Sequence record: MH791411.1
Strand: one strand, 5' to 3'
DNA from: Escherichia phage Ecwhy_1
Length of the DNA: 64,000 bases
This document shows, piece after piece, positions 22,940 to 42,500 of the stretch. Numbering within the stretch: the stretch's first letter is position 1; each line of letters starts with the position of its first letter. The notes under the pieces are model-generated. The model searched no databases and had not been told where the DNA came from. It saw nothing but the letters and a program-made list of their open reading frames with translations. Made by a program: the position numbers and the translations under genes.

Positions 22940-22947
22940 TATAAATA
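22940..22947 (+). promoter_or_regulatory. T4-type late promoter TATAAATA for the baseplate operon
   Basis: Exact TATAAATA 36 nt upstream of the 22983 ATG. Confidence 0.65.
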
Positions 22948-22982: not shown

Positions 22983-23714
22983 ATGATTGATCGTAGAATC
23001 CGATTAAGACCTAAAACCGCAGGTGCTAACTATGTGTATGGTGATTTTGGCAACAGTTCAGAACCAACATTGCTATCGTTTCTGCGTCCAACAAATGGTT
23101 TGGTTTGGACTGTAACCCCAACTGTAACTGAACAAAGGTCGGTTCAATATGAAACACAGTCCCCTATACATACTAACAGTAACTACAACAACTACAAGAA
23201 TACAACAAACACTGTTTTCACTATTCAAGGTGAGTTTTATGCGAACACTGCTGCTGAAGCAATGTATGCATTGGCTTGTGTTCATTTTATTCGTTCCGTG
23301 TCCTTAATGGACTTTGGTCGTCAAGCAGCATCTGCTAATAATCCCGAACTAGCAATTGCAGGTGCACCACCGCCAATTTTACTATTAAGTGGGTATGGTC
23401 GTTATACATATAATGATATTCCTGTTATTTTGAAAGCATATAATTTTACATATCCAAATGATGTTTCTTACATTCAGGTTCCATTGAATAGTAGTGATAG
23501 TACTTTTAATTTATCTGATATGGATAGTCGTAAATTCTTCGAACAGCTTAGAAGTACTGGATATATGAATCCACAAGATGAGGTATGGGTTCCACAGAAA
23601 ATATCGGTAACGCTTCAACTTGAAGAACAACCAACATCTGATTACATGACTAAAAAGTTCAACCTAAATGCATTTAAGCGTGGTGAACTATTACGTAATG
23701 GAGGATTTATCTAA
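22983..23714 (+). CDS. baseplate/tail structural protein (~243 aa)
   Basis: Start taken at MIDRRIRL with GGAGAA SD; first gene after the late promoter in the baseplate module. Function inferred from position only. Confidence 0.4.
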   Translation: MIDRRIRLRPKTAGANYVYGDFGNSSEPTLLSFLRPTNGLVWTVTPTVTEQRSVQYETQSPIHTNSNYNNYKNTTNTVFTIQGEFYANTAAEAMYALACVHFIRSVSLMDFGRQAASANNPELAIAGAPPPILLLSGYGRYTYNDIPVILKAYNFTYPNDVSYIQVPLNSSDSTFNLSDMDSRKFFEQLRSTGYMNPQDEVWVPQKISVTLQLEEQPTSDYMTKKFNLNAFKRGELLRNGGFI

Positions 23715-24028
23715 TGTCCAATTATAGTCAATACTCTCCTTATGCAAAGGTTAAACAAACGTGGTATCTTGGTTACAATTTACCACGTGATATGGTTCCT
23801 GCTGATACTGACGACTTCTATGTAATTCCATTGAAGTATGAGCATCAACCTTGGCGTTTAGCATACGAAATGTATGGTAATGAACGTCTGTATTATGTAT
23901 TTGCCCTATTGAATCCTGATATATTAGGAGAAGACCCAATATACAATTTTAATAGTGGTATCACAATTCGTGTTCCCTCAAATCAACGAGTGCAAAACTA
24001 TTTGAACGGTACTCGTAACATAGGTTAA
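23714..24028 (+). CDS. LysM-like / tail protein X (gpX)-like baseplate protein, 104 aa
   Basis: FYVIPL...WRLAYEMYGNERLYYVFALLNPDIL...GITIRVP resembles the P2 gpX pattern as recalled; ATG overlaps the upstream stop. Confidence 0.4.
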   Translation: MSNYSQYSPYAKVKQTWYLGYNLPRDMVPADTDDFYVIPLKYEHQPWRLAYEMYGNERLYYVFALLNPDILGEDPIYNFNSGITIRVPSNQRVQNYLNGTRNIG

Positions 24029-24039
24029 TGGAGTAAAGT

Positions 24040-26295
24040 ATGGCAGATTTACAAAGTTCTGTTGATAATTTTAAAAATGATATTTCAAACATCACAAGTT
24101 CTGCAAAGGCAGCAAAAGAAACTGCAACAAGTACTATTGAAAGCTTAAAAGCCACTGCTAATACTTTGCAAAATGATCTTGAAAAAGTAAAAAACAATTT
24201 TAAAGCTAAGGTTAGTAACGTACAGTCTTTACCAAAGCAAAGTGCAAGCGTTGACCAAGTGTATGAAGACTTGGATCTAAGTGAGTTTGTTATTCCTTAT
24301 GACAATAAATTGTTAAAGTATGACAATCCAACTTGGCACTTTTCCCTTTTCGCATTAGACAAGGATGATTTCAAAAACTTCTGGCTTTACCCAGATGCTG
24401 AAGTTCAACGTCATGTCATCTCTGAAAGTGGTGTAACTGGAAAGTATAATATCACAAGTGTTCAGATGACGCAAGCTGGTCCTTCAACTCCAGGGATGAC
24501 AACCAACTATTGCTTCAACACAGCAGTACTGAACCTTTCAGAAAACAATAGTATGAGTTTATATGATGAACTAATTTCTTTAAGTAATAAACTAAGGTAT
24601 CATAAGTTCATGGACTTACCTTTAATATTAGAATTGAAATTTATTGGATTCAATACTAATGGTGTACCTGAAACTATACCAGAAACAACTCGTAAATGGT
24701 CCGTGAAGATTAACAGTGTTACCGCTAGTGCATCACAAAGTGGTAGTACTATGATGTATTCTATGAGTCTTGTTCATAACCGTACTGCTCTAGTGGATAA
24801 CGTTGAATGGACTCTTAAAGAACCATTTAACTGCACAGCAGAAAACTTTGGTGATTTTTGTTTTGATTTGGAAGATAAATTGAATCAAATGGCAGACCAA
24901 CAATATGGTTATTTGCGTTATAAATTTGGTGAGTTAGCAGAAGGGAAGTTCTTTGAATTTAAAGTTGCACCAGATTTACAGGATTTGTTTATAAACTATG
25001 ATTCTAAACAGATGGCAGAAGCTGGAGCTACAAAAAGTGGTGCACAGGGTTCTAAAAACTTTTCATGGAATCCAAGTACTCCAATTTCTCGAATTATCGA
25101 TGACGTAATAGATACCTGTACTGTACAGGCTGATGATAGTACTAGTGTTCGTCAATTTGTTAATATAATCCCACTTAAACAGTATGTTGGATTTGATAAT
25201 TACCGAAACACGTCAGTTTATAAAGTTGTTTTCTATATAGTTCGTTTTAAAATTGGTGATATTGTTCATGAATCCGATTTACAGCCAGAAAACTTTACAT
25301 TTGAGTATTTCTTTGAAAATGCCGAGAAATATGTAGACCCAAATGACCAAAAACCAAAGATTAACATGAAAACTTACAATTATCAGTTTAGTGGACTCAA
25401 TAGTGAGATTCTAGACCTTGATTTGAAGTTTGACCAGCAATTCTTTGTGGCTACAACTCGTAACCCTGGACCAATACAGGATGTTGCTAACCACGCTGGT
25501 ACTCATACCTCCCAAGAATTGAATATACAAGGGGTTCAGTACAACAGTATACCAGATGCATGGGCAAAAACAAGTGATTTACGCGTTACACGTGATCTTG
25601 GTGGTATGTTAACACAGGCCCAGGAACAACTACTCAATAAAGTTGAAACTTTAGCAAAAGAACAAATGCAAGTTGGTAATGCTGAAGAACAGGATCGTTA
25701 TAATAACTATCAAGTAAACGTTCTACCACAGTATATTGAAGATTATGTAACCACATATGAAGAAAATGACGGTGGAACCGATGGAATTGGTCATCGATAT
25801 GGTGAAGTGTTTACAATGCCGACTGAAGCAACAAATAATGAAACAACATTGTCTGCATCATTGAACGATAACAGTAGCACATATGAAATGGATCGCCGTA
25901 AAATTCGTGACAACTATTACAATCGTCCATTCTTGTGTAAATTGGATATGCGTGTTGTTGGTGACCCATTCTGGTTGGGTTGGAGTGATTATTCATATAT
26001 CCAATATCTTGAACAGGTAATTAATGGGGAAGATATGGAAATTAATCCCGAAGATTACCATGTTGCTAACTATATTACATCTGAAGCATATCTTTTATTG
26101 AAATTACAACCTGTGGTTTCTATAAATGATAATACTGGTGTTCTTGATATTAATACACCAACTACATTTAACCAAACTGTATATCGTGTTAACAAAATTG
26201 TTCATGATTTTGGTGCAGGTGGTTCATTTACACAACAAATTCAGGCTGCAATTGTAATTCGTGCACTCAAACGTCACGATAGTATAATTGAATAA
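24040..26295 (+). CDS. baseplate hub-like structural protein (751 aa)
   Basis: N-terminal coiled coil; lies immediately upstream of the spike gene as hub proteins usually do. Positional inference. Confidence 0.35.
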   Translation: MADLQSSVDNFKNDISNITSSAKAAKETATSTIESLKATANTLQNDLEKVKNNFKAKVSNVQSLPKQSASVDQVYEDLDLSEFVIPYDNKLLKYDNPTWHFSLFALDKDDFKNFWLYPDAEVQRHVISESGVTGKYNITSVQMTQAGPSTPGMTTNYCFNTAVLNLSENNSMSLYDELISLSNKLRYHKFMDLPLILELKFIGFNTNGVPETIPETTRKWSVKINSVTASASQSGSTMMYSMSLVHNRTALVDNVEWTLKEPFNCTAENFGDFCFDLEDKLNQMADQQYGYLRYKFGELAEGKFFEFKVAPDLQDLFINYDSKQMAEAGATKSGAQGSKNFSWNPSTPISRIIDDVIDTCTVQADDSTSVRQFVNIIPLKQYVGFDNYRNTSVYKVVFYIVRFKIGDIVHESDLQPENFTFEYFFENAEKYVDPNDQKPKINMKTYNYQFSGLNSEILDLDLKFDQQFFVATTRNPGPIQDVANHAGTHTSQELNIQGVQYNSIPDAWAKTSDLRVTRDLGGMLTQAQEQLLNKVETLAKEQMQVGNAEEQDRYNNYQVNVLPQYIEDYVTTYEENDGGTDGIGHRYGEVFTMPTEATNNETTLSASLNDNSSTYEMDRRKIRDNYYNRPFLCKLDMRVVGDPFWLGWSDYSYIQYLEQVINGEDMEINPEDYHVANYITSEAYLLLKLQPVVSINDNTGVLDINTPTTFNQTVYRVNKIVHDFGAGGSFTQQIQAAIVIRALKRHDSIIE

Positions 26296-26308: not shown

Positions 26309-28972
26309 ATGGCAGATACAAGTAAGAAATATGCCCAACAACAGTTGGGTCGTTTTGACCCTTCGTATCCACAACTAGCAACCGTGATGGATAACCGTGA
26401 CCCAACTAAATCCGGTAAGCTAAAAGTGTGGATTCAAGGTTCACAAAGTGATAAAAATTCAAAAGAGTCATGGATTGAAGCATCATACATGTCTCCATTC
26501 GCTGGTAAAACTCCAGGGATACCAAGTGCTGATGCTTATGGTCAATATCCAAAGGGATATGGTTTTTGGGCGGTTCCACCTGATGTCGGATGTACTGTTG
26601 TTGTTATATTTGCACAAGCAAGAACATTCCAAGCGTATTGGATTGGTTGTGTTTATGACCAACGTATGAATACGATGGTTCCTGGGATGGCTACTGAAAT
26701 AAGCAACTATGCTGGTACTGATATGCCATTACCCGTAACTGATTATGACCGTAATACAATTTCTACCAGTACTCAAGACAAATATGCAAACGTTCCAATT
26801 ATTGCAGGTCTGAAAAAACAAAACTTACTTTATGATGAGGAAGCGGGTGTTGCTAACCGTAGCAGTACTCGCCAGACCACCAGTACTGTTTATGGTCTTT
26901 CCTCACCTCGTGGTAACAGTTTTATTATTGATGATGGTTACACAGAAGAAGAATTAACAGCACCTACATGGGATCAAGATCCAGATGGTTATCAGGATAC
27001 CCAATTCAATAACCCAGTGAACGATACTCGTGTTGGTTCTCGTAAAAATGAAGGCGTTGTAATTAAAACACGTAGTGGTGCACAGTTGTTGTTATCTGAA
27101 GCCTCTGGTGATGTTCTTTTAATTAACCGTGATGGTACTGCACGTATTAAATTCACTGGTGAAGGTGATATTGAAATGCACTGTGATAAGAATATTAACA
27201 TTCGTGCAGGTCAAGATATTAACATGGTTGCTGGACGCTCATATAATATTGAAAGTGGAGCAGACTTCAATGCTCGTGTTGGTGCAAACACTAAACTAGA
27301 TTTGGTTGGTGCATTGGATGCTAAAGTTGGTGGTCAGGTTGTTATTAACGCTGGAGCAGATTTACGTTTAGTAACAGCAGCTTCATTACGTATGCAAAGT
27401 GGTAGCAGTACTGATATAACTGCTGGTTCTAATGCGTCAATCTCTGCTGCTACCAGTGCTAATCTTATTGGTTCTTCATCAGCTATTATTAGTGGTGGTG
27501 GTCAAACTCTTACTGTTAACAGTGGTGGTAATAGTGGTACTGCTGAATTTAATGCACCAAACTTCCGCACCCCATCTGCTGGCTTGAATGATCATATACA
27601 TGATATATCGGCTTGGGTTGATGCTGAGAATCACGGCAGTACTGTTGAACCTCCACGTCAAGGTGGTGGTAGTGGGAATAGTGAATCCCCAGTTCAACCT
27701 GAACCTGCTAATGATGTAGCTCCAACTTTAGCTCCAGTACAGGACACTGAAGCAATTCAATATGTAAATTATACAACAGAAACAGAACAAGTTCAAACAC
27801 AAGATTTAATGACTTCTGATCCTGGTATGACTGGTTATAGCATTACGTATGAAGGTCTTCATATGTTCATGCCGTGTAGTGGAACCATTCGCCAATACGG
27901 TTATTGGGGGAAAGGTGTCCCGACTAGTGGTGGTGGTAAAGCTGATAGAAGTGGCTGGGAAATACAGTGCAAGGGTGATGTTGTAGCTCCAGATGGCGGT
28001 GTAGTTGTTATCACTAATGGTGCTTTATTGGTTCAACATAAGTCTGGATATAAATCTGTATTTTATAATATTCAATCAGATTTGCTCAATAAAGACGTTG
28101 TTCAAAAAGGTCAAGTTATCGGTAAAGCTAATGGTGTTATTCAATTTGAAATAAGAGTTACCTCTGCCAACGTACTAGGATTTAGTGGTTCAGTTGACCC
28201 TGGATTATTCTATGCATCCCAGACTGGTACAGGTTCTGAAGCGGGAAATAAAACATTAATTGCAGGACAAGCAACGAACCAAGCAGCACCGAAAGCTGTT
28301 GTTCAACCTTCTGTTGATAGTGATGAATTAGTTGTAACAACTAAAATTAAAACTATCGGTACTGGGTATTCTCAACGTGGTTCTCGTCATGTCCCTCGTC
28401 GTAGAAGAACACAACGTTCAGGTGGTACTCCAGCACCCACTGCACAAGAATCATACAATGTGGGTAATGTTGATAAGACTGCAATTGATTGGAAAGTTGT
28501 TCCAGGTGATTCACAATTTATTTCTGAATTGAAAGAATATGAAGGAACAATGGCGTATCAACAAGCTAAAGGATATTACCGCAATGGTAAATTCTGGAGA
28601 TATTTGGACAGTCGTGGGTTCCCAACCATCGGCTACGGACACTTGATCGTTGGTGGTGAAAACTTCTCTGGTGGGATTACCGAACAGGAAGCCAATGATA
28701 TGTTGGTGCGTGATAGTAGTAAGGCTATATATGACGCAAAATCCATTTACGCTTCTTATAAGATGAAAACACCTTACATGGCACAACAAGTTCTATGTCA
28801 AATGGTATTCCAGATGGGTAAAGGTGGTGTAATGAAATTTAAGTCAATGCTATCTGAAATGGCTAAAGGTAACTACAAGCAAGCTGCTGCTCAAATTCGA
28901 AATTCAGCTTGGTATCGTCAAACTACACGCCGTGCTGAATTAATGGCACGTAGATTAGAGGCATGTCAATAA
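26309..28972 (+). CDS. 5: baseplate central spike (gp5-like) with M23-peptidase-like domain and C-terminal GH24 lysozyme domain, 887 aa
   Basis: Middle Gly/Ser/Ala-rich beta-helix-like repeats; residues ~745-887 are T4-lysozyme-like with Glu (EYEG), Asp (YLDSRG) and Thr (PTIGYGHL) aligned to the T4L catalytic triad; GWEIQCKGDVVAPDGGVVV...QFEIRV resembles the M23 fold but lacks the His ligands. Confidence 0.7.
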   Translation: MADTSKKYAQQQLGRFDPSYPQLATVMDNRDPTKSGKLKVWIQGSQSDKNSKESWIEASYMSPFAGKTPGIPSADAYGQYPKGYGFWAVPPDVGCTVVVIFAQARTFQAYWIGCVYDQRMNTMVPGMATEISNYAGTDMPLPVTDYDRNTISTSTQDKYANVPIIAGLKKQNLLYDEEAGVANRSSTRQTTSTVYGLSSPRGNSFIIDDGYTEEELTAPTWDQDPDGYQDTQFNNPVNDTRVGSRKNEGVVIKTRSGAQLLLSEASGDVLLINRDGTARIKFTGEGDIEMHCDKNINIRAGQDINMVAGRSYNIESGADFNARVGANTKLDLVGALDAKVGGQVVINAGADLRLVTAASLRMQSGSSTDITAGSNASISAATSANLIGSSSAIISGGGQTLTVNSGGNSGTAEFNAPNFRTPSAGLNDHIHDISAWVDAENHGSTVEPPRQGGGSGNSESPVQPEPANDVAPTLAPVQDTEAIQYVNYTTETEQVQTQDLMTSDPGMTGYSITYEGLHMFMPCSGTIRQYGYWGKGVPTSGGGKADRSGWEIQCKGDVVAPDGGVVVITNGALLVQHKSGYKSVFYNIQSDLLNKDVVQKGQVIGKANGVIQFEIRVTSANVLGFSGSVDPGLFYASQTGTGSEAGNKTLIAGQATNQAAPKAVVQPSVDSDELVVTTKIKTIGTGYSQRGSRHVPRRRRTQRSGGTPAPTAQESYNVGNVDKTAIDWKVVPGDSQFISELKEYEGTMAYQQAKGYYRNGKFWRYLDSRGFPTIGYGHLIVGGENFSGGITEQEANDMLVRDSSKAIYDAKSIYASYKMKTPYMAQQVLCQMVFQMGKGGVMKFKSMLSEMAKGNYKQAAAQIRNSAWYRQTTRRAELMARRLEACQ

Positions 28973-28984
28973 ATATTTCAGTAC

Positions 28985-28992
28985 TATAAATA
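28985..28992 (+). promoter_or_regulatory. T4-type late promoter TATAAATA for the lysozyme gene
   Basis: Exact TATAAATA 18 nt upstream of the 29010 ATG, preceded by TTTCAGTAC as at the capsid promoter. Confidence 0.6.
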
Positions 28993-29009
28993 ATAATGAG
29001 GAAATCTTT

Positions 29010-29498
29010 ATGAGTAAATGGGAAATCAAAAATACCGACGAACAATTTTTTAAAGAAATTAAAGAATTTGAAGGTACTATTGCGTATCAGAAAAAACTTG
29101 GTTATTTTAAAAATGATAAGTTTTGGGTATATAAAGACAGTCTAGGTCTTGATACCATTGGTTACGGTCACCTTGTACTTAAGGGTGAAAGTTTCAAAAA
29201 TGGACTCACTGAAGCAGAAGCTGATGCTCTCCTTATAAAAGATGCTCAGACCGCTTACAATGACGCAAAATCAATCTATGATCAATTTGGAATGACTGCT
29301 CCAGTACAGGTTCAGCGTGTATTGTGGTTTATGGTGTTCCAAATGGGTAAATCAAAAGTTTTAAATTTCAAAAAAGCGATGGCTGCTCTCGGTCGTGGTG
29401 ATTATAAAACTGCTGGTAAAGAAATGCGTGATAGTTCGTGGTACAAACAAACCACATCCAGAGCGGAGAAGATGGCTCGCATCGTCGAATCCGTATAA
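29010..29498 (+). CDS. e: lysozyme / endolysin, GH24 (T4 gene e-like), 162 aa
   Basis: EFEGT...YKDSLGLDTIGYGHL...MVFQMG...WYKQTTSRAEK matches T4 lysozyme motifs including the catalytic Glu/Asp/Thr; paralogous to the C-terminus of the spike. Confidence 0.9.
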   Translation: MSKWEIKNTDEQFFKEIKEFEGTIAYQKKLGYFKNDKFWVYKDSLGLDTIGYGHLVLKGESFKNGLTEAEADALLIKDAQTAYNDAKSIYDQFGMTAPVQVQRVLWFMVFQMGKSKVLNFKKAMAALGRGDYKTAGKEMRDSSWYKQTTSRAEKMARIVESV

Positions 29499-29513: not shown

Positions 29514-29909
29514 ATGGCAATTGTTTTTAAAGGTTTTTCAACTCCAGTAGTTGGAAGAACTGAAACATTGTATGACAGTGAATTGGTTCGTCAGGATTTA
29601 ATGAATCATTTCAATACAAAAAAAGGTGAACGTGCATTTGATGCTGATTATGGGTTCATTGCGTGGGATTTGCTATTTGAATTGGATGGTTATAATACAA
29701 TCAACCTTTTGGAAGCAGATGCCCGTAGAATTATTAGCTTGGACCCACGTTTAAGCTTAAAGAAACTTCAAATATCAAGAATTGAGTACGGTTATCAGAT
29801 GGATATAGTACTTGAATATGTTGTTCTCAATACTCTTGAAGAATTAACTATAGTTTTTGATGCAAGAAGTAACAACAGAATGGCTACCTATTCTGTATCA
29901 TCTTTGTAA
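29514..29909 (+). CDS. 25: baseplate wedge protein gp25 / gpW-like, 131 aa
   Basis: KKGERAFDADYGFIAWDLLFE aligns with T4 gp25 RKGSRPFDPEFGCDLSDQLFE as recalled; size matches. Confidence 0.7.
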   Translation: MAIVFKGFSTPVVGRTETLYDSELVRQDLMNHFNTKKGERAFDADYGFIAWDLLFELDGYNTINLLEADARRIISLDPRLSLKKLQISRIEYGYQMDIVLEYVVLNTLEELTIVFDARSNNRMATYSVSSL

Positions 29910-29915
29910 ATTATA

Positions 29916-29945
29916 AAAGCACTCTTCGGGGTGCTTTTCTTTTTG
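29916..29945 (+). terminator. rho-independent terminator
   Basis: AAGCACTC-ttcg-GGGTGCTT hairpin followed by TTTCTTTTT. Confidence 0.7.
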
Positions 29946-30011: not shown

Positions 30012-33000
30012 ATGTCACAACAAAAAAGGCAATCAAATTTATACGCTGGTGAAGATTGGACTCAAGTATATGAAAGCTTTTATAAGATCAATCTAACAGC
30101 TTATGACTTTGATACAATCCGTCAAAGTATGATTGACTATCTACGTGCTACGTACCCAGATTCTTTCAACGACTGGATCGAAAACGACCAGTTCATCTTT
30201 ATTCTAGATACCATTTCTATGCTAGGACAGAACTTAGCATTCCGTATGGATTTAAACACTCGTGAGAACTTCCTAGATACTGCTACTCGTCGTGCATCAG
30301 TACTGAAACTCGCAAAAATGATTTCTTACTCTCCACGCCGTTCATATCCAGGTCGTGCAGTTGCTAAATTAACAGAAATAAAAACCAACCAAGACGTTCG
30401 TAATAGTTTTAACGAATCACTTAAGGATAAAATCATTCGTTGGAATGACCCAATGGACACAAACTGGTATGAGAACTTCATTCTAGTTATGAACAGTTCA
30501 TTTGTCAGTACTAACCAGTTTGGTAATCCGGTTAAACGTATCGATATCAATGGTGTTTCTCGTCAGCTATATCGTATGAATACAATTCCAATGTCAGCAC
30601 CAAGTCTTCCATTCACAGCTACAGTTAATGGTGAATCGATGACATTTGAAGTTGTCAACCCTGATATTACAGCAGTTGGTGTTGAAGAGCGTCACCCTGA
30701 ACCACAAGAGCAAAAATATATCGTTTATCAGAATGATGGTAACGGATTTAGTTCACCAAATACTGGTTTCTTCGTTTATTTTGTTCAAGGGACATTGACA
30801 TACCAAGATTACCAATATAATATTCGTGAAGAAAACCGTATCCAAGACATCAACGTAGATAATATCAACGAAACTGATGTTTGGGTTCAGGAAATCAACG
30901 AAGATGGTATTGTACGTACTAAATGGACCAAAGTTCCATCTATGGAAAGTATCGCATACAATACTGTTAACCGTCAACTAAAAACAATCTTTGCTGTCAC
31001 AACTCGTGATAAAGACCAGATTACTATTAAGTATCCTGATTCTCGTAGTGGTGTTGTTCCTCGTGGGACGTATCGTGTATGGTATCGTGTTAGTAATGGT
31101 GAAACATACAACATTAAAACGTCTGAAATCCAGAACAAAAGTGTAAAATACACCTATAGAACCAAAACACAATCAAGCTATGAATCCAGTACTTTGGATA
31201 TTCGTTTCACATTGCAATATGAATCAGATCGTGCACAAAGTGCAGAAACAATTGAACAAATTAAGGCTCGTGCTCCACAAATGTATTACACTCAAAACCG
31301 TTTTGTTAACGGCGAAGACTATAACATTGCTCCGTTGAGTTTGGGTAACACAGTTCTTAAATCGAAAGCAATTAACCGTTTATATAGTGGACAGTCACGA
31401 TTCATTGATATTAATGATCCAACTGGTAAGTATCAAAACACTGATGTGTTTAGTGATGATGGTTCAATGTATCAAGAAAACACACAATTTAATAAATCTT
31501 TACAATTACCAACTACCAAAACAAATGCTAGTATTGTAATTGATAATATTCAGCCATTGATTGGTGAGAATGCTGTAATCCAACGTTATCAAGCATATCC
31601 ACCGAATACAATTGGTATTGAAATTCAACAAAAATGGACACCTGAATACAATTCTAATTACGCAACTAATACGTATGGTCGTATTATGGGGGCAACAGGT
31701 AACGTATTCGGAAATTATCAAGTTGGTACGTTGATTAAGTTTTCAAATGCCGGAACTACTGTGTGGGCTAGTATTGTTAGTGTTCTTGATAATGGATATT
31801 ACGTTCTAAGTACTTCAGTTTCATCAAATATGCAAGCACAAGAGTACATTTTACAATACAGAACACGTTTTAATAGTGTCGAAGTGCAAGCAATCGCTGC
31901 AATGCTTGATAAAAAGACAGATTTTGTTATTATTCATGATAAAGAAACAACTTCTTGGATTCCATTAGAAATCAGTACTGATGAAGATACTATTTCTTAT
32001 AATGGAAATGAAGTTCTTGTTATGATTAACATCAAATATACTGCTGAAACCTGGGAATTTGATGCGAATGGCGTTGAATATGTGTTCGTTGGTGGTGATA
32101 AAGTTCGTTTTTACTTCGTTTCTTCTAAAAAGATAACTGATATTAGTACTGGTAGTGTTCAAAGTGACAAAATTGAAATTTTATCATCAAATACCACAAG
32201 CAATAGTAATGCTGGGTTGACAAGTAACATAGATTTCCAAATTTATGACACAATTCAACAAGAAAACGGGTATCTTGATGGTTCTCGTGTGGTTATCACC
32301 TCTGAAAACGTTGATAGTAATGGAATCCCACTAGAACCTAATCAATTCAGAGAAATTGTACCAAATTGGACTGGTGAAGATTCAGTTAAATATGGTGGTA
32401 TATTGGTTTTCCAAGAAAACGATGATTTCACTATATCAGTACTGTCATTACCGAATGATACTTTCACTATTCTTGATTCTTCATGGGCTTATACAATGGA
32501 TCAAGCACTTGCAGAAACTAATGCGTATAAGAGAAGTGAATTTGTTCGCAACAATGCTATTCGATCAACAACATTGAGTGGTATCTATAGTAAAGGTTCA
32601 GGCTTTATAGTTGGCTTTAACTATGATGGTAAATATTACTTCATTGAACAAACTGTTGGTAATAATAATGACCGTTTAAACCAATTAATTGAGAACTTGA
32701 CCTATTCTGATGATACAACTGCTGCAACTCCTGAACTTGCGTTTTATCGTGCTATTGTTAATATCGGTACTAATGCTGATGTTAACCAAAAGTTAGATTA
32801 TTATGGTTATAAAGATGTAACTTCACAATATACCGTAAAAACGAATGCAAGAACTGGTATTGATTTCCACTGGAAACATTATGCACCAGATGATAATCGC
32901 ATTGACCCAAGTAGAACAAACTTGATTGACATGTATGTATTAACCAATTCATACAAAACTGAAGTTGATGTATGGTTGAAGAATGGAACACAAGGTAATA

Positions 33001-33473
33001 TGCCTAAACCGCCAACATCTGTTGAATTGAAAGACATTTTTAAAGAAGTTGAACAAAAAATAGTCATCAGTGACAGTATTATTTGGCATAGTGCAGAATA
33101 TCTACCATTATTTGGTGCGAGTGCTGCTGAAGATTATAAAGCAGATTTTAAAGTCGTCAAATTGCCTAACAGTACAATGAGTGATGATGAAATTCGTCAA
33201 AATGTCGTAGCACTAACTAACGAGTATTTTAATGTTGACAACTGGGATTTTGGTGAAAGTTTCTATTACACAGACTTGTGTACATACATTCATTCCCAAT
33301 TAGGACGACATATTAGTACTATTGTTATCGTAGCTCAAAACCCTAACTCTAAATTTGGCTCACTATTTGAAATCCCTTCACGTTCTGACCAGATTTTCTT
33401 AAGTACTGCATCAGTTGATAACGTACAGATAGTCAATTCCTTGGCTAAGAGTAACATTAACATTGGTTCATAA
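30012..33473 (+). CDS. 6: baseplate wedge protein, baseplate-J (gp6-like) family, 1153 aa
   Basis: N-terminal region DYLRATYPDSFNDWIENDQFIFILDTISMLGQNLAFRMDLNTRENFLDTATRRASVLKLAKMISYSPRR is typical of baseplate J / gp6; follows gp25-like as in P2 W-J. Confidence 0.6.
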   Translation: MSQQKRQSNLYAGEDWTQVYESFYKINLTAYDFDTIRQSMIDYLRATYPDSFNDWIENDQFIFILDTISMLGQNLAFRMDLNTRENFLDTATRRASVLKLAKMISYSPRRSYPGRAVAKLTEIKTNQDVRNSFNESLKDKIIRWNDPMDTNWYENFILVMNSSFVSTNQFGNPVKRIDINGVSRQLYRMNTIPMSAPSLPFTATVNGESMTFEVVNPDITAVGVEERHPEPQEQKYIVYQNDGNGFSSPNTGFFVYFVQGTLTYQDYQYNIREENRIQDINVDNINETDVWVQEINEDGIVRTKWTKVPSMESIAYNTVNRQLKTIFAVTTRDKDQITIKYPDSRSGVVPRGTYRVWYRVSNGETYNIKTSEIQNKSVKYTYRTKTQSSYESSTLDIRFTLQYESDRAQSAETIEQIKARAPQMYYTQNRFVNGEDYNIAPLSLGNTVLKSKAINRLYSGQSRFIDINDPTGKYQNTDVFSDDGSMYQENTQFNKSLQLPTTKTNASIVIDNIQPLIGENAVIQRYQAYPPNTIGIEIQQKWTPEYNSNYATNTYGRIMGATGNVFGNYQVGTLIKFSNAGTTVWASIVSVLDNGYYVLSTSVSSNMQAQEYILQYRTRFNSVEVQAIAAMLDKKTDFVIIHDKETTSWIPLEISTDEDTISYNGNEVLVMINIKYTAETWEFDANGVEYVFVGGDKVRFYFVSSKKITDISTGSVQSDKIEILSSNTTSNSNAGLTSNIDFQIYDTIQQENGYLDGSRVVITSENVDSNGIPLEPNQFREIVPNWTGEDSVKYGGILVFQENDDFTISVLSLPNDTFTILDSSWAYTMDQALAETNAYKRSEFVRNNAIRSTTLSGIYSKGSGFIVGFNYDGKYYFIEQTVGNNNDRLNQLIENLTYSDDTTAATPELAFYRAIVNIGTNADVNQKLDYYGYKDVTSQYTVKTNARTGIDFHWKHYAPDDNRIDPSRTNLIDMYVLTNSYKTEVDVWLKNGTQGNMPKPPTSVELKDIFKEVEQKIVISDSIIWHSAEYLPLFGASAAEDYKADFKVVKLPNSTMSDDEIRQNVVALTNEYFNVDNWDFGESFYYTDLCTYIHSQLGRHISTIVIVAQNPNSKFGSLFEIPSRSDQIFLSTASVDNVQIVNSLAKSNINIGS

Positions 33474-33507: not shown

Positions 33508-33553
33508 ATCATAAATAAATCAAATGAATGAACGAATTATATGGAGTCCAAAA

Positions 33554-36500
33554 ATGACTAATAATTTTAAGTTTCAACCTACACAGATGGCTGAAGCAGT
33601 ACAGAAGAAGCTTTTCATAAAAAGATTGCCTGAGTGGATGCAAGGCTTAGAAGATATTCAGAAAGTCAGTGATGATGTTATCCAACAATGGTTTAATCCG
33701 GCTGAAAACGAATTAGTTGACGGCTACATTGGTGACATGGGTTCTCCGGCAGCAGCAGGGAACATCTTCTTACACGAGTCAACAGTCGCACGTCAACTAT
33801 ATCAGTTGTCCACTGCGTATGTCTCAAGAAATGATGACTCCAGCATTCGTTCAATTCAATTTTATGATGATCTAGTTGGCTATATGAATCATTACGGTGC
33901 ACTAACCGAAAATGAAAGCCGTTTGTTTAATGGTAAGTTCTATTCATGGACCCCACCAATTAACCCAAATAAAATGAACAACTACAGTTCATACCTATGG
34001 GATTCCAAGAATAGCTATAATATCACAACTCCAGATTATATTGTAATGGAACGTGGTGCAGAAAATGGTAACACTTGGTCACTACAAAACTTCTGGTACA
34101 CATTAGGTGAAACTTTAGAAGATGGTACTATCCTAACTGAAGAACTAATGCAAGATTCCCGTTTTGTTCGTGCTCGTGCACCAATTATCGAATACAATAA
34201 AAATATCGAACTAATGAACTACGGTACTAAATTCCGTGGGACAGTTGATTTGTTCTCTGATATTATTAAACCTGAAGATATCGTACAAAAAGATATTAAC
34301 AGCGGTATACGTATTGATGGTATTATTCCACAAGATGGTATGCGTATTCTTTTCACCAGTATTGGTAACAATGGTGAAAACAACCGAATTTATAAAGTAT
34401 ATGTTAAACGTATGCAAGATGGAACACGTGTGTATGGTCTAGCATTAGATCCAGACGAAGAATCTGAAAGCCGTCCGAGTGGTGAACCACAAGATGGTGA
34501 CGTAGTTCTTATTATCAAAGGTAATGAATTTGGTAACAGTTCCATGTATTGGGACGGTTCTCATTGGATTCAAGCACAGTCTAAAACTTCTGTGAACGTA
34601 TTTCCACAATTCCAATTGTATGACCGTAATGGTGTTAAACTAAACAACACTACTACCTATCCATCAAGTACTTTTACTGGTTCTTCACTATTTGGTTTTA
34701 AAATTAACTATAATTATGCAACTGATAGCGTTTATGGTTATAATATTGAACTAGGTGATTACAATTATTACACATATGAGAATTTCCTACAATCAACTCG
34801 TTATACTTACGAGCATTTGGGTGTGGAAGTTGAAATTGATGGACTATATTACTATAACGTAATTGGTGAAGGTAATACAATGAACCTAGAAACTGATTGG
34901 GTTCGTAGTACTGAATACTCCAAACAATATGTTAAACAAACTCCACAGGTTGAACGTACAGTAATGTTCCGCGTGTTCAGTACTGTTTATGACATGGAAA
35001 GTTTCAAAGACCCAGTTGAAGGAATGTATGCTTATGTAATTGAAGTTGACAGAACTTATCAATATTACAAAGCAGAACGTGAAACATATCTTGATTGGCA
35101 TGTTATCGTTGGTGATGGGGTACAAAGCGTTAAGTACAATCATACATTTGAATTGGCACAAAAAGTACTAGATAATTCTGATGATATTATCGAACTAGTT
35201 GTTGATGGTGTGGAAATAAAAGAATACACCAAAACTGTAGTTAATAATCAAGTACAAAGTATTACAATTGATAGCTCTGTTGATTTGGATGAAGATTCTG
35301 TTGTACAAATCAGAACTTATAGTAGCACTATCACTCCTAATAAAGAGTTGGGTGCATATGAAGTTCCAATTAACCTACAAAATAACCCATATAATTCAAA
35401 CATTGAATACATCAACCAAGGTGATTACACCCTGCACTTCCAAGATATTATTCAAAAGAATATTACATCTGGTTCTGCTGATGACTTTAACAATTACGAA
35501 GAACGTTTGGCTGCTGGTTTGGTTAATAATGGTGTAGGCACTAAAATTATTCAAAACGAAGCGTCCATGTTACCACTAATGGCACATACCGCTAATGAAG
35601 ATATTGATTTGTTTGAATCAATCATGTTTATGCAAGCAGAATACTTCCGCTTCATTAACAAGTTCAACACTCAAATGCTTCGTTTGTATGAAGAAGACCC
35701 AAGTGCTTTTCTTGGTAATAGTGCATCAAACATCGTAGATGCGATTCTAACAGCTATTAATATGGGACGTGATAGTACATTCCCATTCTACTATGACAAC
35801 GTTGCAAGCACTGCTGGGTTTATTCGTGCATTTGTCCCACCAACTCCACAGTTCTTGGGTATTTTGCAAGCTTATACACCACAAAAAGCAACATTCTTAA
35901 CTGCTGGTAGTAAATCTAGCTGTTATAATATCAGTCATACTGGTATTATTTCAAAAGCATACCGTGTTATCAATGGTGTTGATAAAATGGATGACGTAGT
36001 TTTTGAATTGGAAAATCGTATCTTTAATAGTATTGATCTTACTTTCAAGGATATTGATTATAAACCAGTACTAAACAGTGAAGACCTATTCCCAACTCCA
36101 TATTTCACTGGTACTGATTATAGTGCAGAAGAAAAGAAAACTCTATTACTACGTGGTTACATTAACTTCACAGCAACCAATGGCATTAGTAACAGTACTC
36201 ATGATTATGATGCAAATAACTGGAGAACTTGGAACTATACTGGTAGTTATTATGTTGTTGATGGTCAACGTACTGAAATTCCTGCTCGTGGTTCATGGCG
36301 TGCAATCTATACTGACCAATATGGCACATATCGTCCAGCAACCCATCCGTGGGAAATGATGGGCTTCTCTCAACGTCCTACTTGGTGGAACCAAGAATAC
36401 GAACCAACCGCAGTTCAAGTTGGTGAACGTGAGGGTGATGTTGTTTATGTGTATGAAGCACTAGTAATGAATGAAAATGGTGATTTGGTCCCAAGTGGAT

Positions 36501-39500
36501 TGTGGGATATTGATGGTACTATCGGTGATAGCAGTACTGGTACTATTTTGTCAGGTGAACGCCGTGGTCAATATGACAAATACAAGCGTTTCGGTGTACA
36601 GCCATTTAAAATCACTAAGACTGGCGAGAAAACCAGTACTGGTATTGATATTTGTGAAGTTGAGTATATTGCACCTGAAGTTTTAGGTCTTGTTAGTGGT
36701 AATTTAGATCATCGTGCAGAACCGTGGTCTTATGGTGACATGGGTGACATGGAATTCACTTACATGAACACTGCGATGTTTGCTTATGACCAAATGCTTC
36801 TTCTATACAAAGCAAAACCAGCACAGTTTGCAAACTATTACTGGGATACCCGTAATGATAACCTTAAACCAGTTTATACTGATGGTTCACAGTTCCTTTA
36901 TGGTGAAACTCGTAAGCGTCTAAACTTTGACAGTACTACATTAGTACATGGTGAGAAAAACACCCGTACTATCGGTTATCAAATGTTTGTTAGTGACTAT
37001 TTGATGTATCAGAATAAGAACATTACCACCAAATACGGTGACGTTGTTCGTTCTTCTTATGTCAATGTCGCTCACAAAATTGGTGGCTTTACTAAAGCAG
37101 ACCAATTGACATTCACTGCTAAATCTTTCGGTTTGATTTCACAAGAAAACCAAACTATCGGTCTAGTTCGTTCCAATAACATTCGCGATGAGCAAATGAG
37201 TGCAGTAAAAATTACTTGGAATGGTAGTGCATATCAAATTGATGGTTATGATTTAGTTGGTGCTAAATTTAAATATAAAATTCCAGTTAAAAATGGAAGA
37301 AAAGTAACTCTTAAATTGGAAGACAGAACTGTTGTTCATTACAATGAATGGAAATCTGAAGGTACATTAGAATATGGTAAAATATTCAATACATACCAAG
37401 AAGTTTATACTTTCATTTGTGGATATGGTGAATATCTAAAAGAACATGGCTGGATTTTTGAAGATGTAAATGATAGTGGTACTCAACAAGACTGGACAAC
37501 TATTGCTAAAGACTTTGTTATTTGGAGTCAGAATAATTTAAGTACTGGTGAGTTCATCTCCTGCACTCCAAGTGCAGCTAATGCTAAATTTGGTGCGGAT
37601 TTTGGTTCAGTTCAATCTGTTACACAGAATAGTGGTGGTGTTTGGTCACTACTCGATGATGAAAACCAAGGTATCCGTCAATATGAAATCGAAACTTCGC
37701 GTATCGGTAACGTATTCACAGTGAGAACTACATCTGAATCACAAAAACGTATGGCGTTGATTCGTTTGAGCCTAAGTTCATATGAACACGCAGTTGTTTT
37801 TGATGATAAAACTATCTTTGGTGATTACATTTACCAACCAACTTATGGTGCTATTCAAGAATTGATTAAAATGTATGGTTACATTACTGGGTCATGGACT
37901 GGTCGCCTACAAGCACCTGGTTTCATTATCCTAGAAGCAGGAACTTTACCATCATTTGAAAAATTAGTAACTGATTTTGAATTATATTATAATAGTGAAA
38001 CTCCTGTGAGTGATGTTCAGCTTCAAGAGTTATCAAATCACTTGATTGGCTATCAAACTCGTGATTATCTACAACGTATGATTAGTAGTGATGTTAGTCG
38101 TGTTGATTTCTATAAAGGATTCATTCATGACAAAGGTACTAACCAAGTAATGGAAAAAGTACTACGCGTTTCTAAATCTTACGACACTGATGAATATAAA
38201 GCACTTCAGGAATGGGCATTTAAGATTGGTACTTATGGTAATATCAATGGTAAGAAAAATCTACAATTTAAACTAATCAATGACCAATTTAAACAACAAC
38301 CACAGATGGTTTCGTTTGATGTTAATGCTACATCAAATGGTACTGGTAATGGTATTGTTTATTACGGTGAACAAGGGGTTGACTCACGCTGGATTACTCG
38401 TCCAAATGGTAAGTTTTCATTCCCAATGCGTAGTGGAAGAAGTGAGAATATCCAACTTCCAGACATTGGTCCTGTAACACTAGATGAAATTTCATACGTT
38501 ACTAAAGATTTCAGTACTGCATATAATGATCGTATCAATTATATGAATAACAGTGGTGAAATCCCAGATTCTGTATGGATGTTTAAAGATGGTAATGATT
38601 TGTGGAATATTTTCGAACTAGTAGACACTGAAGTTGAGATGCTCTCTATCGTTCCAATTGAAAATACCGATGTATATGCAGAACAATTCTGTAAAGTAAC
38701 TCTAAGTGATGATATCCCACTAAATGATGGTGATTATTATTACTTTGTTGATGAAACTAACTTTATGCCAGATACATTGACTATAGAAAGTCAATATTAT
38801 ACTGCGGGTAATGACCCTAGAGTTATGGTAGTTCCGTTTGACACTTCAATCACTATTGACTTCACTGATCCTGATACTCGCCCACGCTTGTATCGTTATG
38901 TTTCACGATTCAGTACTGAAGAGATGCGTCAGGAATACATTGACAGAAAATATAGTTTTAAAGCTCCACAAAGTACTTTGTTTGACCGCCCAACCACATA
39001 TGATGAGCGTACTAACATTACTGCGTTGTACCTAAACGTGTTTGACCCAATCAACGGTGTTATTCCTGGTGCAGCGATGCAGAACGTTACCTACACATCT
39101 CCAGTTGACCCAGCACAATACAACAGCAATGGTGAATTGATTCAAGCATGGGGTGCTGATAAAGTTGGTCAGGTTTGGTGGAACACCAGCACTGCTTTCT
39201 ACTTAGATTACACTCGTGCAATCTATGATGCTGATGGTAATGTGGATGTTGATGCAACAAATGAATATAAACGTTATAACTGGGGCAGATTGCTACCGCA
39301 CAGTACTGTTGATGTTCTTGAATGGGTATGTTCACCAGTTGAACCATATAACTGGGACAAATACTGCAAAGACGTTGCTAACAAAAATAAAAACAACACT
39401 ATGTACCTACCAAGCGGAACCGCATTGGAAGATAATTATAGTACGTTCTTAGAATATGATAGCACAACTGATACTTATGTTACAAAATACTATTTCTGGG

Positions 39501-42500
39501 TTCGTGATACAATCTATGTACCACCATTGCATTCCAGAACTAAATCTTGTACTGATATTGCTCGTATTATTAAAGAACCAGCACAGCTTAACATTCCTTG
39601 GTTTGCACCAATCAATGAAAGCTCGTTCATTCTAAGTAATATGCAATTTGAAGTCAACGATGACACAAGTATTTTAACTGTTTCTTATTACATGGATAAT
39701 ACTGAAGTTATTAAACATGACCAGTATCAATTATGTAAAGAAGGTGATAGCTATAACTTCAATCCATCAATCTGGACTTCTATGTGGAATTCTATGATTG
39801 GTCAAGAAACTACTGAATCAGGAACTGTTATTGATTTACTATATCCTTTAGTACCAAACGGTTTAGGTTCTAATAAGACTTGGTTCCAAGATGTAATTGA
39901 AGCTCGTAGAAACTTTGTAGAAAGTGCAAATAACTATTATCGCTCACAGAATATAACAACTAACACTGTTCTAATGGACGAAGTGTTTAATGTTAAAACT
40001 ACTGAAGTTAACCCGAATGAAGTATCATATCGTGTACTAACTTACAATAGTGAATTAGTCATTGCACCTGAAAGTGACAAGTTCAAAGAAAACGACGCAG
40101 TACTAGTAAGTACTAGTGGTGTATTACCTAACCCACTATCAACTAGCTCTGTATATTTTGTGCATATTGATGCTAATGGTTATATTCATCTAATGAATAG
40201 TCCATCAAGTGCTGGTAGTGTGGTTACCATTACATTGGAAAACCGTGGTGAAGGTCAACAGAAAATGATTAAACAATCAGACTATGTTGAAGCACTAGGA
40301 ACTTCATTGGACATGACCCAGTACTGGTCACTAGCAGATTGGTATGATATTGGCTACGATAAAAATACTGCATATACACAAGAATCCAGCCTAGAAGATG
40401 CAAACACTAAGAACTATCAAGTTGGTGACATTATCAGAATTACAGATGTTGATGGCATCTGGACATTGTACATTAAAGCACAATCACGTGATTCAGTTTA
40501 CTGGAAAGCAATTGGTCGTGAAAATAGTACAGTTGAATTGAATGATATGTTATACGCTGACTATACAGTTCGTGATGCTAATGGTTCGTTGAGTAATCGT
40601 GAGATTAACGTTCGTAAAGCACTAGCTTTATTGAAGAACTCATTCGACTTACATCAGAGTGAAATTGTGTTTGATATGGTTAAGTATGTTCACGTAGAAC
40701 AAAGCGTTGTTGATTGGGTATTCAAAACATCTTACATTTATATTGTAGGTTTAGAACAATCATTAGTACAGAACTATTCCAACGACAACTTGATTAATCA
40801 AATCGTTGAGTACTTTGAAGAAGTTAAACCATATAGAACTAAGATTCGTTCCCAGATTGAACAGAAAACTTCAGATGATGATTTAATTAAAGGTTTGTGT
40901 AATGATTTAGATCCTAATGGCTATATATTTGCAGATGGGACTTGGGTTAAAACGGAAAAAGACATTTGGGATTATGAATATGCTCAATTCAATGAGGTAA
41001 CTCAACGTTGGGAGCAAGTTGGTGAATTGCCAAGTGATTTCGTAACACCTAATCGCCGTTTCCAAGAAATTGATGTTATCATGCACTACGACAACACTCA
41101 ATGTAAACCAAATGATAATTTGGCAAGTGTTGATGTATTGGAAGAAGTGAATAAGAAATATCAATCTAATGCACAAGATGTTGTTAGTAATTTTGAATTA
41201 CAACGTTACAAATATACATTCCCAGAATACAGTGATGAAGATTTCGACCTATTGGTTGCTTATCAGATGCAATTGTATTACCCAGAATTGAACGTAACTC
41301 TAGGGATTGCTTACGGTGTTAACCAATGGTATGCAGACCATGCAGATGATTTGGTAGCAACCGCAGAATTCACAGAAACGTTGAATCGTGTATATAAAGA
41401 ATCAACACAAAATGAAATGTTTAATGACGTAAATCATTATGTTCAGTATAACACACTCTCTAACCGTTTGAAATTGTACACAGGTGCAGATGATGAAGTA
41501 ATTCATGATGAGGTTGGATGTGGATTTAGTGGGTTAACCTATGATGATAATCCAAGCACCAGACTACCGTTTGGTTATGCATCCAGTACTGATTATAACT
41601 TTGGTTACTTTGAAGTTAGTAGTGAGTTGTATAAAAAGTATGTTTCTTTAATTAAAGAAAACAATACTACTGCAACTGATGATGAAGTTAGAATTATACT
41701 TGAAGTTGAATATGGTGTTTATTCATATCGCCATGTAGATGAAGATGGAAATCAACGATTCTACAATGACGCAATTCATGTATTGTCTGGTATGCGTGGT
41801 TTGTATGACAAAGATGCTACCGACCATTATGAAAAGGCTGAAGAAATACTAAGTAGAATGCCTATTGATATTCATGCATTTACTATGATGCCACGAAAAT
41901 ATGTTTATGTTAATGTTAATGGTGTATACGAGAGTATCCCAGATGACCAAAGCATTGATGATTTCATGGAAGACAAATTCATAACTGACGGTCAACTAGT
42001 TCAATTGGCAGAAATAAATCTTGATGACTTACCTCTTGATAGAAATAACCCAATGTACAGTGATTATCAGCACATCCTAGATAGCATCACCGATGCTAAG
42101 TACTACGATGATATGAATGCATTTGATAACCTAGCACTTGAATCACAAACTTCCGAGTTAAAATGGGAAGTTGAAGGTGACGAAGTAGATCCGTACATAA
42201 TCGACATTTCTGATATTAACCCATCAGGAAGAAAGATTGGTCAGATTCGCTTCACAGTTGATGGTTATGGATTCAATAGTGTTTCACTAGTTCAATTGAG
42301 AGACAATAGTAGATATAAAACTGAAGGTATGGTTATCATCAACCCTTATAAAACAACAGAAGCAATTGTTAGTATTCCTTCTTACGCTAAGATTGAAAAT
42401 GATATTAGTAAATCATACAGTAAGTATGATGAAAAATACTTCTATAAAATTAAATCAATTGTTAGTGATACAGAAGCTGAAGTAATTGACAATACCCTAT

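Follow-up and report, generated by a model that had tools for sequence, protein, structure and literature searches.

In a 64,000-nucleotide stretch of the genome of Escherichia phage Ecwhy_1 (sequence record MH791411.1; this whole stretch is hereafter called the window), we analyzed the gene for the central baseplate spike and the lysozyme gene that follows it on the same strand (Table 1). Both open reading frames (ORFs) have exactly the boundaries given in an initial annotation of this DNA. The spike combines a gp5/VgrG-type OB-fold, a triple-stranded beta-helix, an invariant HxH motif that would form its apex, a LytM-type M23 domain that appears catalytically dead across the whole sampled family, and a C-terminal GH24 lysozyme domain with a paralog in the free-standing protein. 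The layout is real and unusual, but it is known from close relatives. Family-wide counts refer throughout to 85 full-length spikes and 81 orthologs of the free lysozyme.

Table 1. Features of the spike and free-lysozyme locus and its surroundings in the window (aa, amino acids; GA, Pfam gathering threshold)
Feature	Positions	Strand	Details
Central spike gene	26309-28972	+	887 aa; order OB-fold, beta-helix, HxH, predicted dead LytM, GH24
gp5/VgrG-type OB-fold, aa 19-116	26363-26656	+	Pfam PF04717, 29.8 bits (GA 23.8)
Triple-stranded beta-helix, aa ~246-415	27044-27553	+	Pfam DUF2345, 30.9 bits (GA 30.7)
HxH motif H429-I-H431, putative histidine-cage apex	27593-27601	+	Straight after beta-helix
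Degenerate (metal-site-less) M23/LytM domain, aa ~513-650	27845-28258	+	Profile, fold, and residue columns
Conserved linker motif YSQRGSRHVPRRRR, aa 685-700, then disordered basic stretch 701-719	28361-28408	+	Alignment
C-terminal GH24 domain of spike, aa 725-887	28481-28969	+	E745, D767, T773
TATAAATA, match to T4-type late promoter consensus	28985-28992	+	In 37-nt intergenic gap
GAGG ribosome-binding site	28998-29001	+	Eight bases 5' of free-gene ATG
Free-standing GH24 lysozyme gene	29010-29498	+	162 aa; E21, D43, T49
gp53-like gene	23714-24028		Baseplate gene run
751-aa virion protein gene	24040-26295	+	Directly 5' of spike; PHROG 11190 "virion structural protein"
gp25-like baseplate wedge gene	29514-29909	+	Directly 3' of free lysozyme; Pfam GPW_gp25, 34.7 bits; PHROG 43
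Terminator-like hairpin with T-run	29915-29938	+	After gp25-like gene; consensus scan only
gp6-like wedge gene	30012-33473		1153 aa; baseplate gene run

The N-terminal 470 residues of the spike match VgrG chains by both sequence and fold. The OB-fold aligns with the OB domain of type VI secretion system (T6SS) VgrG (9jg8 and 8gra, phmmer), and the beta-helix, which is modeled by AlphaFold2 (AF2) with a local confidence (predicted local distance difference test, pLDDT) of 80 to 93, aligns with that of VgrG1 (4uhv and 4mtk) and returns spikes of T6SSs and extracellular contractile injection systems (eCISs) in Foldseek searches. The succession of a PF04717 OB-fold and a triple-stranded beta-helix places the protein among the gp5/VgrG-type spikes. 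Directly 3' of the helix, in the context GLNDHIHDISAWVDAENH, H429 and H431 are invariant (85/85), and H442 (27632-27634) is kept in at least 90% of the family. When an HxH follows the beta-helix, it is recognized as marking an iron-binding apex of the P2 gpV type; spikes without it bear a PAAR protein instead (bioRxiv 10.1101/2023.02.25.529910). No PAAR-like gene was found in the baseplate gene run, where a crude motif scan for PAAR was negative and constitutes weak evidence. By analogy with gpV, the motif is a putative histidine-cage apex; because a single-sequence search of the PDB with spike residues 1 to 470 matched VgrG chains and neither P2 gpV nor phi92 gp138, it is the motif that carries this assignment.

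A further 456 residues lie C-terminal of the HxH motif, and the putative apex is therefore not the C-terminus of the protein. These residues run through a Gly/Ser/Pro linker, a small conserved element (residues 467-500), a disordered linker (501-512), the LytM domain, a second linker with a conserved YSQRGSRHVPRR motif, and the disordered basic stretch 701-719 (AF2 pLDDT <50) before reaching the lysozyme. In the linker motif, G691 is invariant, and R690, S692, and P696 are each conserved in at least 90% of the spike family. The extended element between the LytM and lysozyme domains reads S.ELVV.T.V.SIGS.YSQRGSRHVPRR and spans residues ~671-719 (28319-28465). T4 gp5 undergoes cleavage during assembly, and the linker element of the present spike may be a processing or docking site. 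No solved structure matches the whole arrangement: the full-length AF2 model, which is that of a monomer, matches eCIS and T6SS spikes, DipM, and T4 lysozyme separately.

The central segment of the spike had initially been annotated as M23 peptidase-like and as lacking the metal-binding histidines, and both parts of this description are borne out. The Pfam model PF01551 remains below its gathering score here (18.1 bits for the whole protein and 23.9 bits for the isolated domain, against a threshold of 28.7) and matches 32 of 34 diverse family members at E < 0.1, with a best E-value of 5e-11. A family profile built over residues 508-640 retrieves only M23/LytM chains from the PDB at E < 0.1, including LasA (8.7e-7), SpoIIQ (4e-6), DipM (4.5e-5), TagE, and zoocin A, with EnvC lower on the list at 0.22. 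The AF2 model of the domain is confident (pLDDT 89.7, predicted template modeling score 0.84); Foldseek ranks the DipM and EnvC LytM domains first among its hits (E-values of 1.5e-6 to 3e-6, TM-scores of 0.66-0.70), and all of the 50 best matches in the PDB have the M23 fold. We therefore regard M23 homology, as supported by profile and model, as secure despite the subthreshold Pfam score.

The zinc-ligand positions of the HxxxD motif are occupied here by R547 and E551, the HxH motif falls on V610-I611-Q612, and the catalytic His of "YaHL" maps within F585-Q589, where there is no His; this mapping is a register by sequence and combines a HMMER alignment to DipM with the motif register of LytM and lysostaphin. 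(When the latter two sequences were added by MAFFT --add --keeplength, the HxxxD half came out misaligned, and the HMMER/DipM alignment was used in its place.) Among the 85 homologs, the ligand columns hold Arg in 70, His in five, and Gln in four, and Ile in 50, Glu in eight, Thr in eight, Val in seven, Ser in five, and Asp in two; no member has a His at 584-588, only one has any His within 609-615, and none has a complete M23 metal site. The structural His of the LytM domain, H577, is kept in 84 of 85. Of what marks an active M23 enzyme, the domain has the fold and lacks the Pfam gathering score, HxxxD, HxH, and catalytic His; a LytM fold devoid of a metal site is what characterizes degenerate LytM regulators. 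Because no homolog has a complete site, the LytM domain is predicted to be degenerate and catalytically dead throughout the sampled family. Its mean pairwise identity is nonetheless 58%, compared with 55% for the GH24 domain, 54% for the beta-helix, and 26-40% for the linkers. Since the domain appears dead yet is conserved as strongly as the lysozyme domain, its sequences point to functional constraint that is not enzymatic.

The C-terminal domain of the spike and the 162-residue protein were initially proposed to be paralogous GH24 lysozymes with intact catalytic residues, the former at the C-terminal end of the spike, and all of this holds. BLASTP aligns spike residues 728-886 with residues 4-162 of the free protein without gaps (80/159 identities, 50%; E = 7e-57), and both exceed the gathering score of the Pfam Phage_lysozyme family (PF00959; 41.6 bits for the spike and 37.3 bits for the free protein, against 22.3) and match T4 gp5 and T4 lysozyme chains in the PDB with E-values of 1e-11 to 1e-8. 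In NCBIfam, we found just a weak match to a gene-transfer-agent endolysin, far below the cut-off. The spike domain is modeled with pLDDT 81-90 over residues 725-887 and superimposes on T4 lysozyme and the gp5 lysozyme with a target-normalized TM-score of ~0.70 at 26-30% identity. The catalytic residues E11, D20, and T26 of T4 lysozyme correspond to the residues listed for each copy in Table 1; the Asp-Thr pair is confirmed by the gp5 alignments (YxDxxGxxTIGxGH), and the Glu11 equivalence comes from the alignment with T4 lysozyme. Relative to T4 lysozyme, the two copies share an insertion, as initially noted, although its length is 13 residues rather than ~10: the Glu-to-Asp spacing is 21 residues in both and eight in T4 lysozyme. 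Conversely, 16 residues separate the His31 equivalent from the column of spike A795 in both copies, against 31 in T4 lysozyme (15 fewer).

The active site is more strictly conserved in the free copy than in the spike. The catalytic Glu and Asp are found in 84 of 85 spikes and in all 81 free lysozymes, and the catalytic Thr in 63 of 85 spikes and again in 81 of 81 free copies. In the 22 other spikes (P0008, P0018, P0020, and others), the residue at position 773 is Val (15), Ser (4), Tyr, Ala, or Glu (one each), and in one distant spike (P0085) the Glu and Asp have been lost as well. These patterns in the alignment hint that, where a free copy exists, the lysozyme borne by the spike is under relaxed constraint.

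The 13-residue insertion also occurs outside this pair. It is present in 150-residue GH24 proteins encoded on chromosomes of Serratia, Erwinia, Yersinia, and Raoultella; these Enterobacterales proteins (P0186-P0228, with records that include Pantoea) show ~51% identity with the free copy and probably represent lysozymes of this subfamily from prophages or tailocins. It is likewise present in a third phage paralog, RaK2 ORF029 (L006 1704-2606), a GH24 protein that has an N-terminal signal-anchor and a LysM-like segment and is 32% identical to the free copy. As far as these alignments go, the insertion marks a wider GH24 subfamily and is not private to the spike and free lysozymes. Within the window, tblastn found neither a third GH24 copy nor a second M23 copy. 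The endolysin role has been assigned to CBB_187 (transmembrane segment, LysM-like segment, and lysozyme), which has homologs in GAP32, 121Q, and RaK2 (PMC5259590), and a membrane-anchored third lysozyme of the RaK2 ORF029 type is the predicted exported endolysin of the group.

GAP32, XaC1, Serratia phage BF, and relatives from metagenomes all keep the arrangement of spike and free lysozyme. RaK2 has an insertion of four small hypothetical ORFs (two per strand) between the two genes (L001 6390-7883), and there the free gene is still attached to the gp25-like gene. The most distantly related clade (Vibrio phage 2.275.O and the metagenomic P0080) has the gp25-like gene directly after the spike gene, with no free lysozyme between them; these spikes are ~40% identical and still carry LytM and GH24 domains (L003 3576-6610; L008 4001-7004). 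The core clade has the free gene even where the spike Thr is replaced. The two paralogs are 50% identical here and 61% identical in GAP32, compared with 60-64% for orthologs between these two genera, and at the nucleotide level the two copies here share 56% identity overall and 40% at third codon positions. Because adjacency is conserved, orthologs shared with GAP32 are closer than the paralogs here, and third-position identity is so low, these sequences indicate an ancient duplication. Recent duplication or gene conversion was considered separately and rejected on the same nucleotide, third-position, and ortholog figures.

In neighbor-joining trees, the free clade receives 71% bootstrap support, bacterial GH24 100%, the union of spike and free lysozymes 28%, and that of free and bacterial lysozymes 5.5%; these monophyly tests used cleaned sets, with bacterial-type proteins removed from the free set. 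In the full tree, the free clade is nested among the spike domains. Phylogenetic support for a duplication is weak when taken alone, and the synteny, with a distant clade that has no free gene at the site, is the better evidence. The most economical reading of these sequences is that the free gene probably arose when, once and long ago, the 3' end of the spike gene was copied in tandem in the ancestor of the core RaK2-like clade. The local duplication initially proposed from the adjacency of the two copies is thereby supported with three qualifications: it is ancient, the sister relationship is weakly supported in the tree, and the shared insertion is not specific to the pair.

The free gene has a late-promoter-like site of its own, judged by consensus match, in the gap behind the spike gene. 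The same TATAAATA is found 37 nt 5' of the free-lysozyme gene of RaK2 (ORF073) and at the equivalent site of WPEC3. The window has just one other plus-strand copy (22940-22947), located in the gap that precedes the baseplate gene run; annotations of relatives place a divergent gene for a late sigma factor of the gp55 type a few hundred bases upstream of the point equivalent to 22940. Scans for sigma-70 promoters (53 found, 47.5 expected) and terminators (seven found, 5.2 expected) stayed at background. The hydrophilic N-terminus of the free protein, MSKWEIKNTDEQFF, leads straight into the catalytic domain, and no signal peptide or transmembrane segment is visible in its sequence; with predicted muralytic activity, the protein would fit a soluble endolysin without an export signal. 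The gene does not lie in a lysis cassette, being flanked by the spike and gp25-like genes; a holin was sought in the WPEC3 annotations within 20 kb on each side only.

Published proteomes bear on where the two lysozymes reside. Spike orthologs were seen by mass spectrometry (MS) of virions of CBB (PMC5259590) and phAPEC6 (PMC7247149). In phAPEC6, the 95.9-kDa spike was detected in virions and the adjacent small proteins were not (PMC7247149); in CBB, 238 and 240 are given as the only confirmed virion proteins, the free copy being CBB_239 (PMC5259590). In RaK2, virion shotgun MS missed the spike, gp078 (PMC3622015).

Around the two genes, the baseplate gene run extends from the gp53-like to the gp6-like gene. 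The 751-residue protein encoded directly 5' of the spike (24040-26295) has no Pfam match, its orthologs appear in the virion MS lists of CBB (CBB_241; PMC5259590) and phAPEC6 (gp240; PMC7247149), and its position suggests a gp27-like hub partner. Directly after the gp6-like gene, a ~10-kb gene (33524-43525) encodes a 3,333-residue virion structural protein by homology to WPEC3 CDS390 (L005 27216-37217). The region is 99.6% identical in nucleotide sequence to Escherichia phage EC.P1, 99.0-99.5% identical to BF17, vB_Ec-M-J, fEgEco12, WPEC3, Turkey3, and WPEC5, and ~84% identical to PBECO4, phAPEC6, and related records. Because of this near-identity to deposited relatives, the phage can be placed by sequence among the RaK2/121Q/PBECO4-like jumbo coliphages (350-385 kb). 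GenBank records of near-identical phages label both genes as tail lysozymes.

We propose, with moderate confidence, a puncturing spike that carries a dead LytM domain and an active GH24 domain past its apex, accompanied by an old duplicate of the latter that acts as a soluble late lysozyme. In this jumbo myophage of the RaK2/121Q type, the 887-residue protein would form the trimeric spike that punctures the cell, plugged into the baseplate hub by its N-terminal OB-fold, and its VgrG/gp5-type beta-helix would terminate in the HxH histidine-cage apex. From there, each chain would go on via flexible linkers to the dead LytM domain and then to the predicted GH24 muramidase; because HxH stands straight after the beta-helix, both wall-attacking domains would lie beyond the spike tip. 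Tail contraction would push helix and apex across the outer membrane, bringing the tethered LytM and lysozyme arms into the periplasm, where the spike lysozyme could cut glycan strands locally and open the sacculus for passage of the tail tube. For the dead LytM domain, the most likely function is to bind peptidoglycan or a partner protein and so to position, gate, or restrain the lysozyme. The free gene would be an old tandem copy of the spike 3' end, made independent in the core RaK2-like clade, and its product a signal-less soluble protein, predicted to be a competent muramidase, that serves as late lysozyme or auxiliary endolysin. From its sequence features, such a soluble role is favored as the most likely one for the free copy, rather than that of a stoichiometric virion part.

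Several observations weigh against parts of this proposal. HxH cages are also found inside fibers, where they act as register-keeping sites (bioRxiv 10.1101/2023.02.25.529910), so the apex assignment here is putative. The AF2 model of a monomer gives neither the trimer nor the placement of the C-terminal arms, and the bootstrap support that unites spike and free lysozymes is low. The late-promoter match is not found in GAP32 or XaC1, and TATAAATA is not enriched in the window (four found against seven expected); because of this lack of enrichment, the idea of a promoter draws on position and partial conservation. The failure of shotgun MS to detect a 162-residue protein is weak evidence, since the spike itself was missed in RaK2, and the constant location of the free gene, with the spike gene on one side and the gp25-like gene on the other, speaks for a role in structure or assembly.

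The last two points lead to an alternative for the free lysozyme, which could be a low-copy baseplate component, a polypeptide in its own right that sits on the spike or hub, where it would take the place of the T4 gp5 lysozyme domain and give each virion two sets of lysozymes. Its gene always lies between the spike and gp25-like genes within the baseplate run (in RaK2 it stays with gp25), the gp5 lysozyme domain is among its closest relatives in the PDB, shotgun MS misses low-copy proteins (RaK2 gp078 is an example), and a dedicated exported endolysin is already encoded elsewhere in the genome. We nonetheless consider such a component rather unlikely: the free protein was not found in virion proteomes that detected the three-copy spike and/or the small gp25-like protein, it has no docking extension beyond the catalytic domain, its gene has its own late-promoter-like site, and in the distant clade the same spike is built in its absence. 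Less probable still is that the free gene was acquired separately from the prophage or bacterial GH24 pool and landed beside the spike gene by chance. The free copy is about as close to a bacterial protein (51% to P0202; bacterial group mean 46%) as to the spike (50%; group mean 48%), the monophyly of spike and free lysozymes is poorly supported, and the common insertion is a subfamily trait; against this, the bootstrap value for free plus bacterial lysozymes is lower yet, the free gene sits exactly 3' of the GH24 domain of the spike itself, the gapless alignment of 159 residues includes the N-terminal lead-in W.v...D..f...K.(Y/F)EGT, and the GAP32 paralogs reach 61% identity.

For the LytM domain, binding or gating competes with a more specific role, that of an EnvC/NlpD/DipM-like activator that would bind and switch on the host cell-wall amidases AmiA/B/C or lytic transglycosylases at the puncture site, so that peptide stems would be removed in addition to the glycan cleavage by the lysozyme. 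Enterobacterales, the hosts of these phages, use EnvC/NlpD-activated amidases; the best structural matches of the domain are those of DipM and EnvC, both regulatory LytM domains devoid of metal (TM-scores of 0.66-0.70), SpoIIQ and DipM rank high by profile, and conservation is strong although the catalytic site is absent. With just 19-21% identity to EnvC and DipM, however, and with active M23 enzymes matched nearly as well by Foldseek, such an activator seems quite improbable to us, and loss of the active site would be equally expected of a peptidoglycan-binding or lid domain, as in the dead CHAP clip of phage 812. We would give similarly little credence to its broader form, in which the LytM domain past the apex is a phage-delivered EnvC/NlpD mimic that activates periplasmic amidases or gates the lysozyme, and the spike an effector carrier in the manner of an evolved VgrG.

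That these phages have three lysozymes and an odd spike with a central M23 domain was already known from RaK2 (2013) and CBB (2017). For the spikes of these relatives (886-894 residues), the published descriptions comprise an OB-fold of the gp5 type, a beta-helix, an M23 domain in the middle, and a lysozyme at the C-terminus, and they also include a T4-type lysozyme next to the spike and a third one elsewhere (PMC3622015, PMC5259590), the three RaK2 lysozymes (ORF029, 073, and 078) having similar domains (PMC3622015). RaK2 gp078, gp073, and gp029, CBB_240, CBB_239, and CBB_187, and phAPEC6 gp241 are orthologous genes and the same as here. The RaK2 and CBB papers do not report that the M23 metal ligands are lost, that an HxH precedes the enzyme domains, or how old the duplication is and in which direction it went; in the literature, we found no statement of any of these three, no structure of a RaK2-like baseplate or spike, and no mention of a "degenerate LytM" in phage tails. 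What the present analysis adds is that the M23 domain appears dead family-wide yet conserved, that the HxH motif would put the enzymes past the tip, that the duplication appears ancient, that the insertion is a subfamily mark, and that the free gene has a late-promoter-like site. The spike would be a clear case of a contractile-tail spike with wall-attacking domains after the membrane-piercing apex, as in evolved T6SS VgrGs, which raises the structural question of how three arms of ~440 residues are stowed in the baseplate and released from it. A constrained dead LytM domain in a virion protein points to a nonenzymatic job, such as binding, gating, or activation of a host enzyme, and three GH24 paralogs per genome (exported, free, and spike-borne) offer a system for studying how lysozyme roles are split between entry and exit.

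Among known systems, T4 also has a GH24 domain in its central spike (gp5) and a paralogous free lysozyme (gene e), with the same Glu/Asp/Thr and a homologous OB-fold and beta-helix. In gp5, however, the lysozyme lies between OB-fold and beta-helix, whereas the order here is OB-fold, helix, putative apex, degenerate LytM, lysozyme; T4 uses the separate PAAR tip gp5.4 in place of an HxH apex, has no counterpart of the dead LytM domain, and encodes gene e at a distance rather than next to the spike, and its lysozyme differs from the present GH24 domains by their 13-residue insertion and 15-residue deletion. The iron-loaded spikes P2 gpV and phi92 gp138 share the OB-fold, the beta-helix, and an invariant HxH straight after the helix; in gpV, the apex ends the protein (211 residues), unlike here, where metal binding is putative and there is no match at the sequence level.

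EnvC, NlpD, DipM, and SpoIIQ share with the spike domain an M23 fold without the HxxxD/HxH zinc site but are bacterial periplasmic or forespore proteins with ~20% identity to it. Among phage proteins, a BFVD search showed the M23 fold to be widespread in those of the tape measure, the tail, and the virion interior, including "Morphogenesis protein 1 hydrolase." The tail-tip protein gp13 of phi29 pairs a glycosidase, its lysozyme-like domain, with M23; that M23 domain is catalytically active, and gp13 is not a beta-helical spike. The weld-protein clip of phage 812, a dead CHAP domain, is by analogy a precedent for inactive hydrolase folds in baseplates: a peptidoglycan-hydrolase fold without catalytic residues is kept there as a baseplate element of structural or regulatory function, and a separate lid domain of that protein covers an active hydrolase, although fold (CHAP), protein, and host (Gram-positive) all differ. 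In its layout, the spike resembles evolved T6SS VgrGs more than T4 gp5. In these proteins, of which VgrG-3 of V. cholerae with its peptidoglycan hydrolase is an example, OB-fold and beta-helix are likewise followed by C-terminal enzymatic cargo past the tip of the helix; VgrGs differ in having a gp27-like N-terminal half and a PAAR cap, whereas the phage spike dispenses with that half, has the HxH motif, and carries a degenerate LytM domain and a GH24 lysozyme as its cargo.

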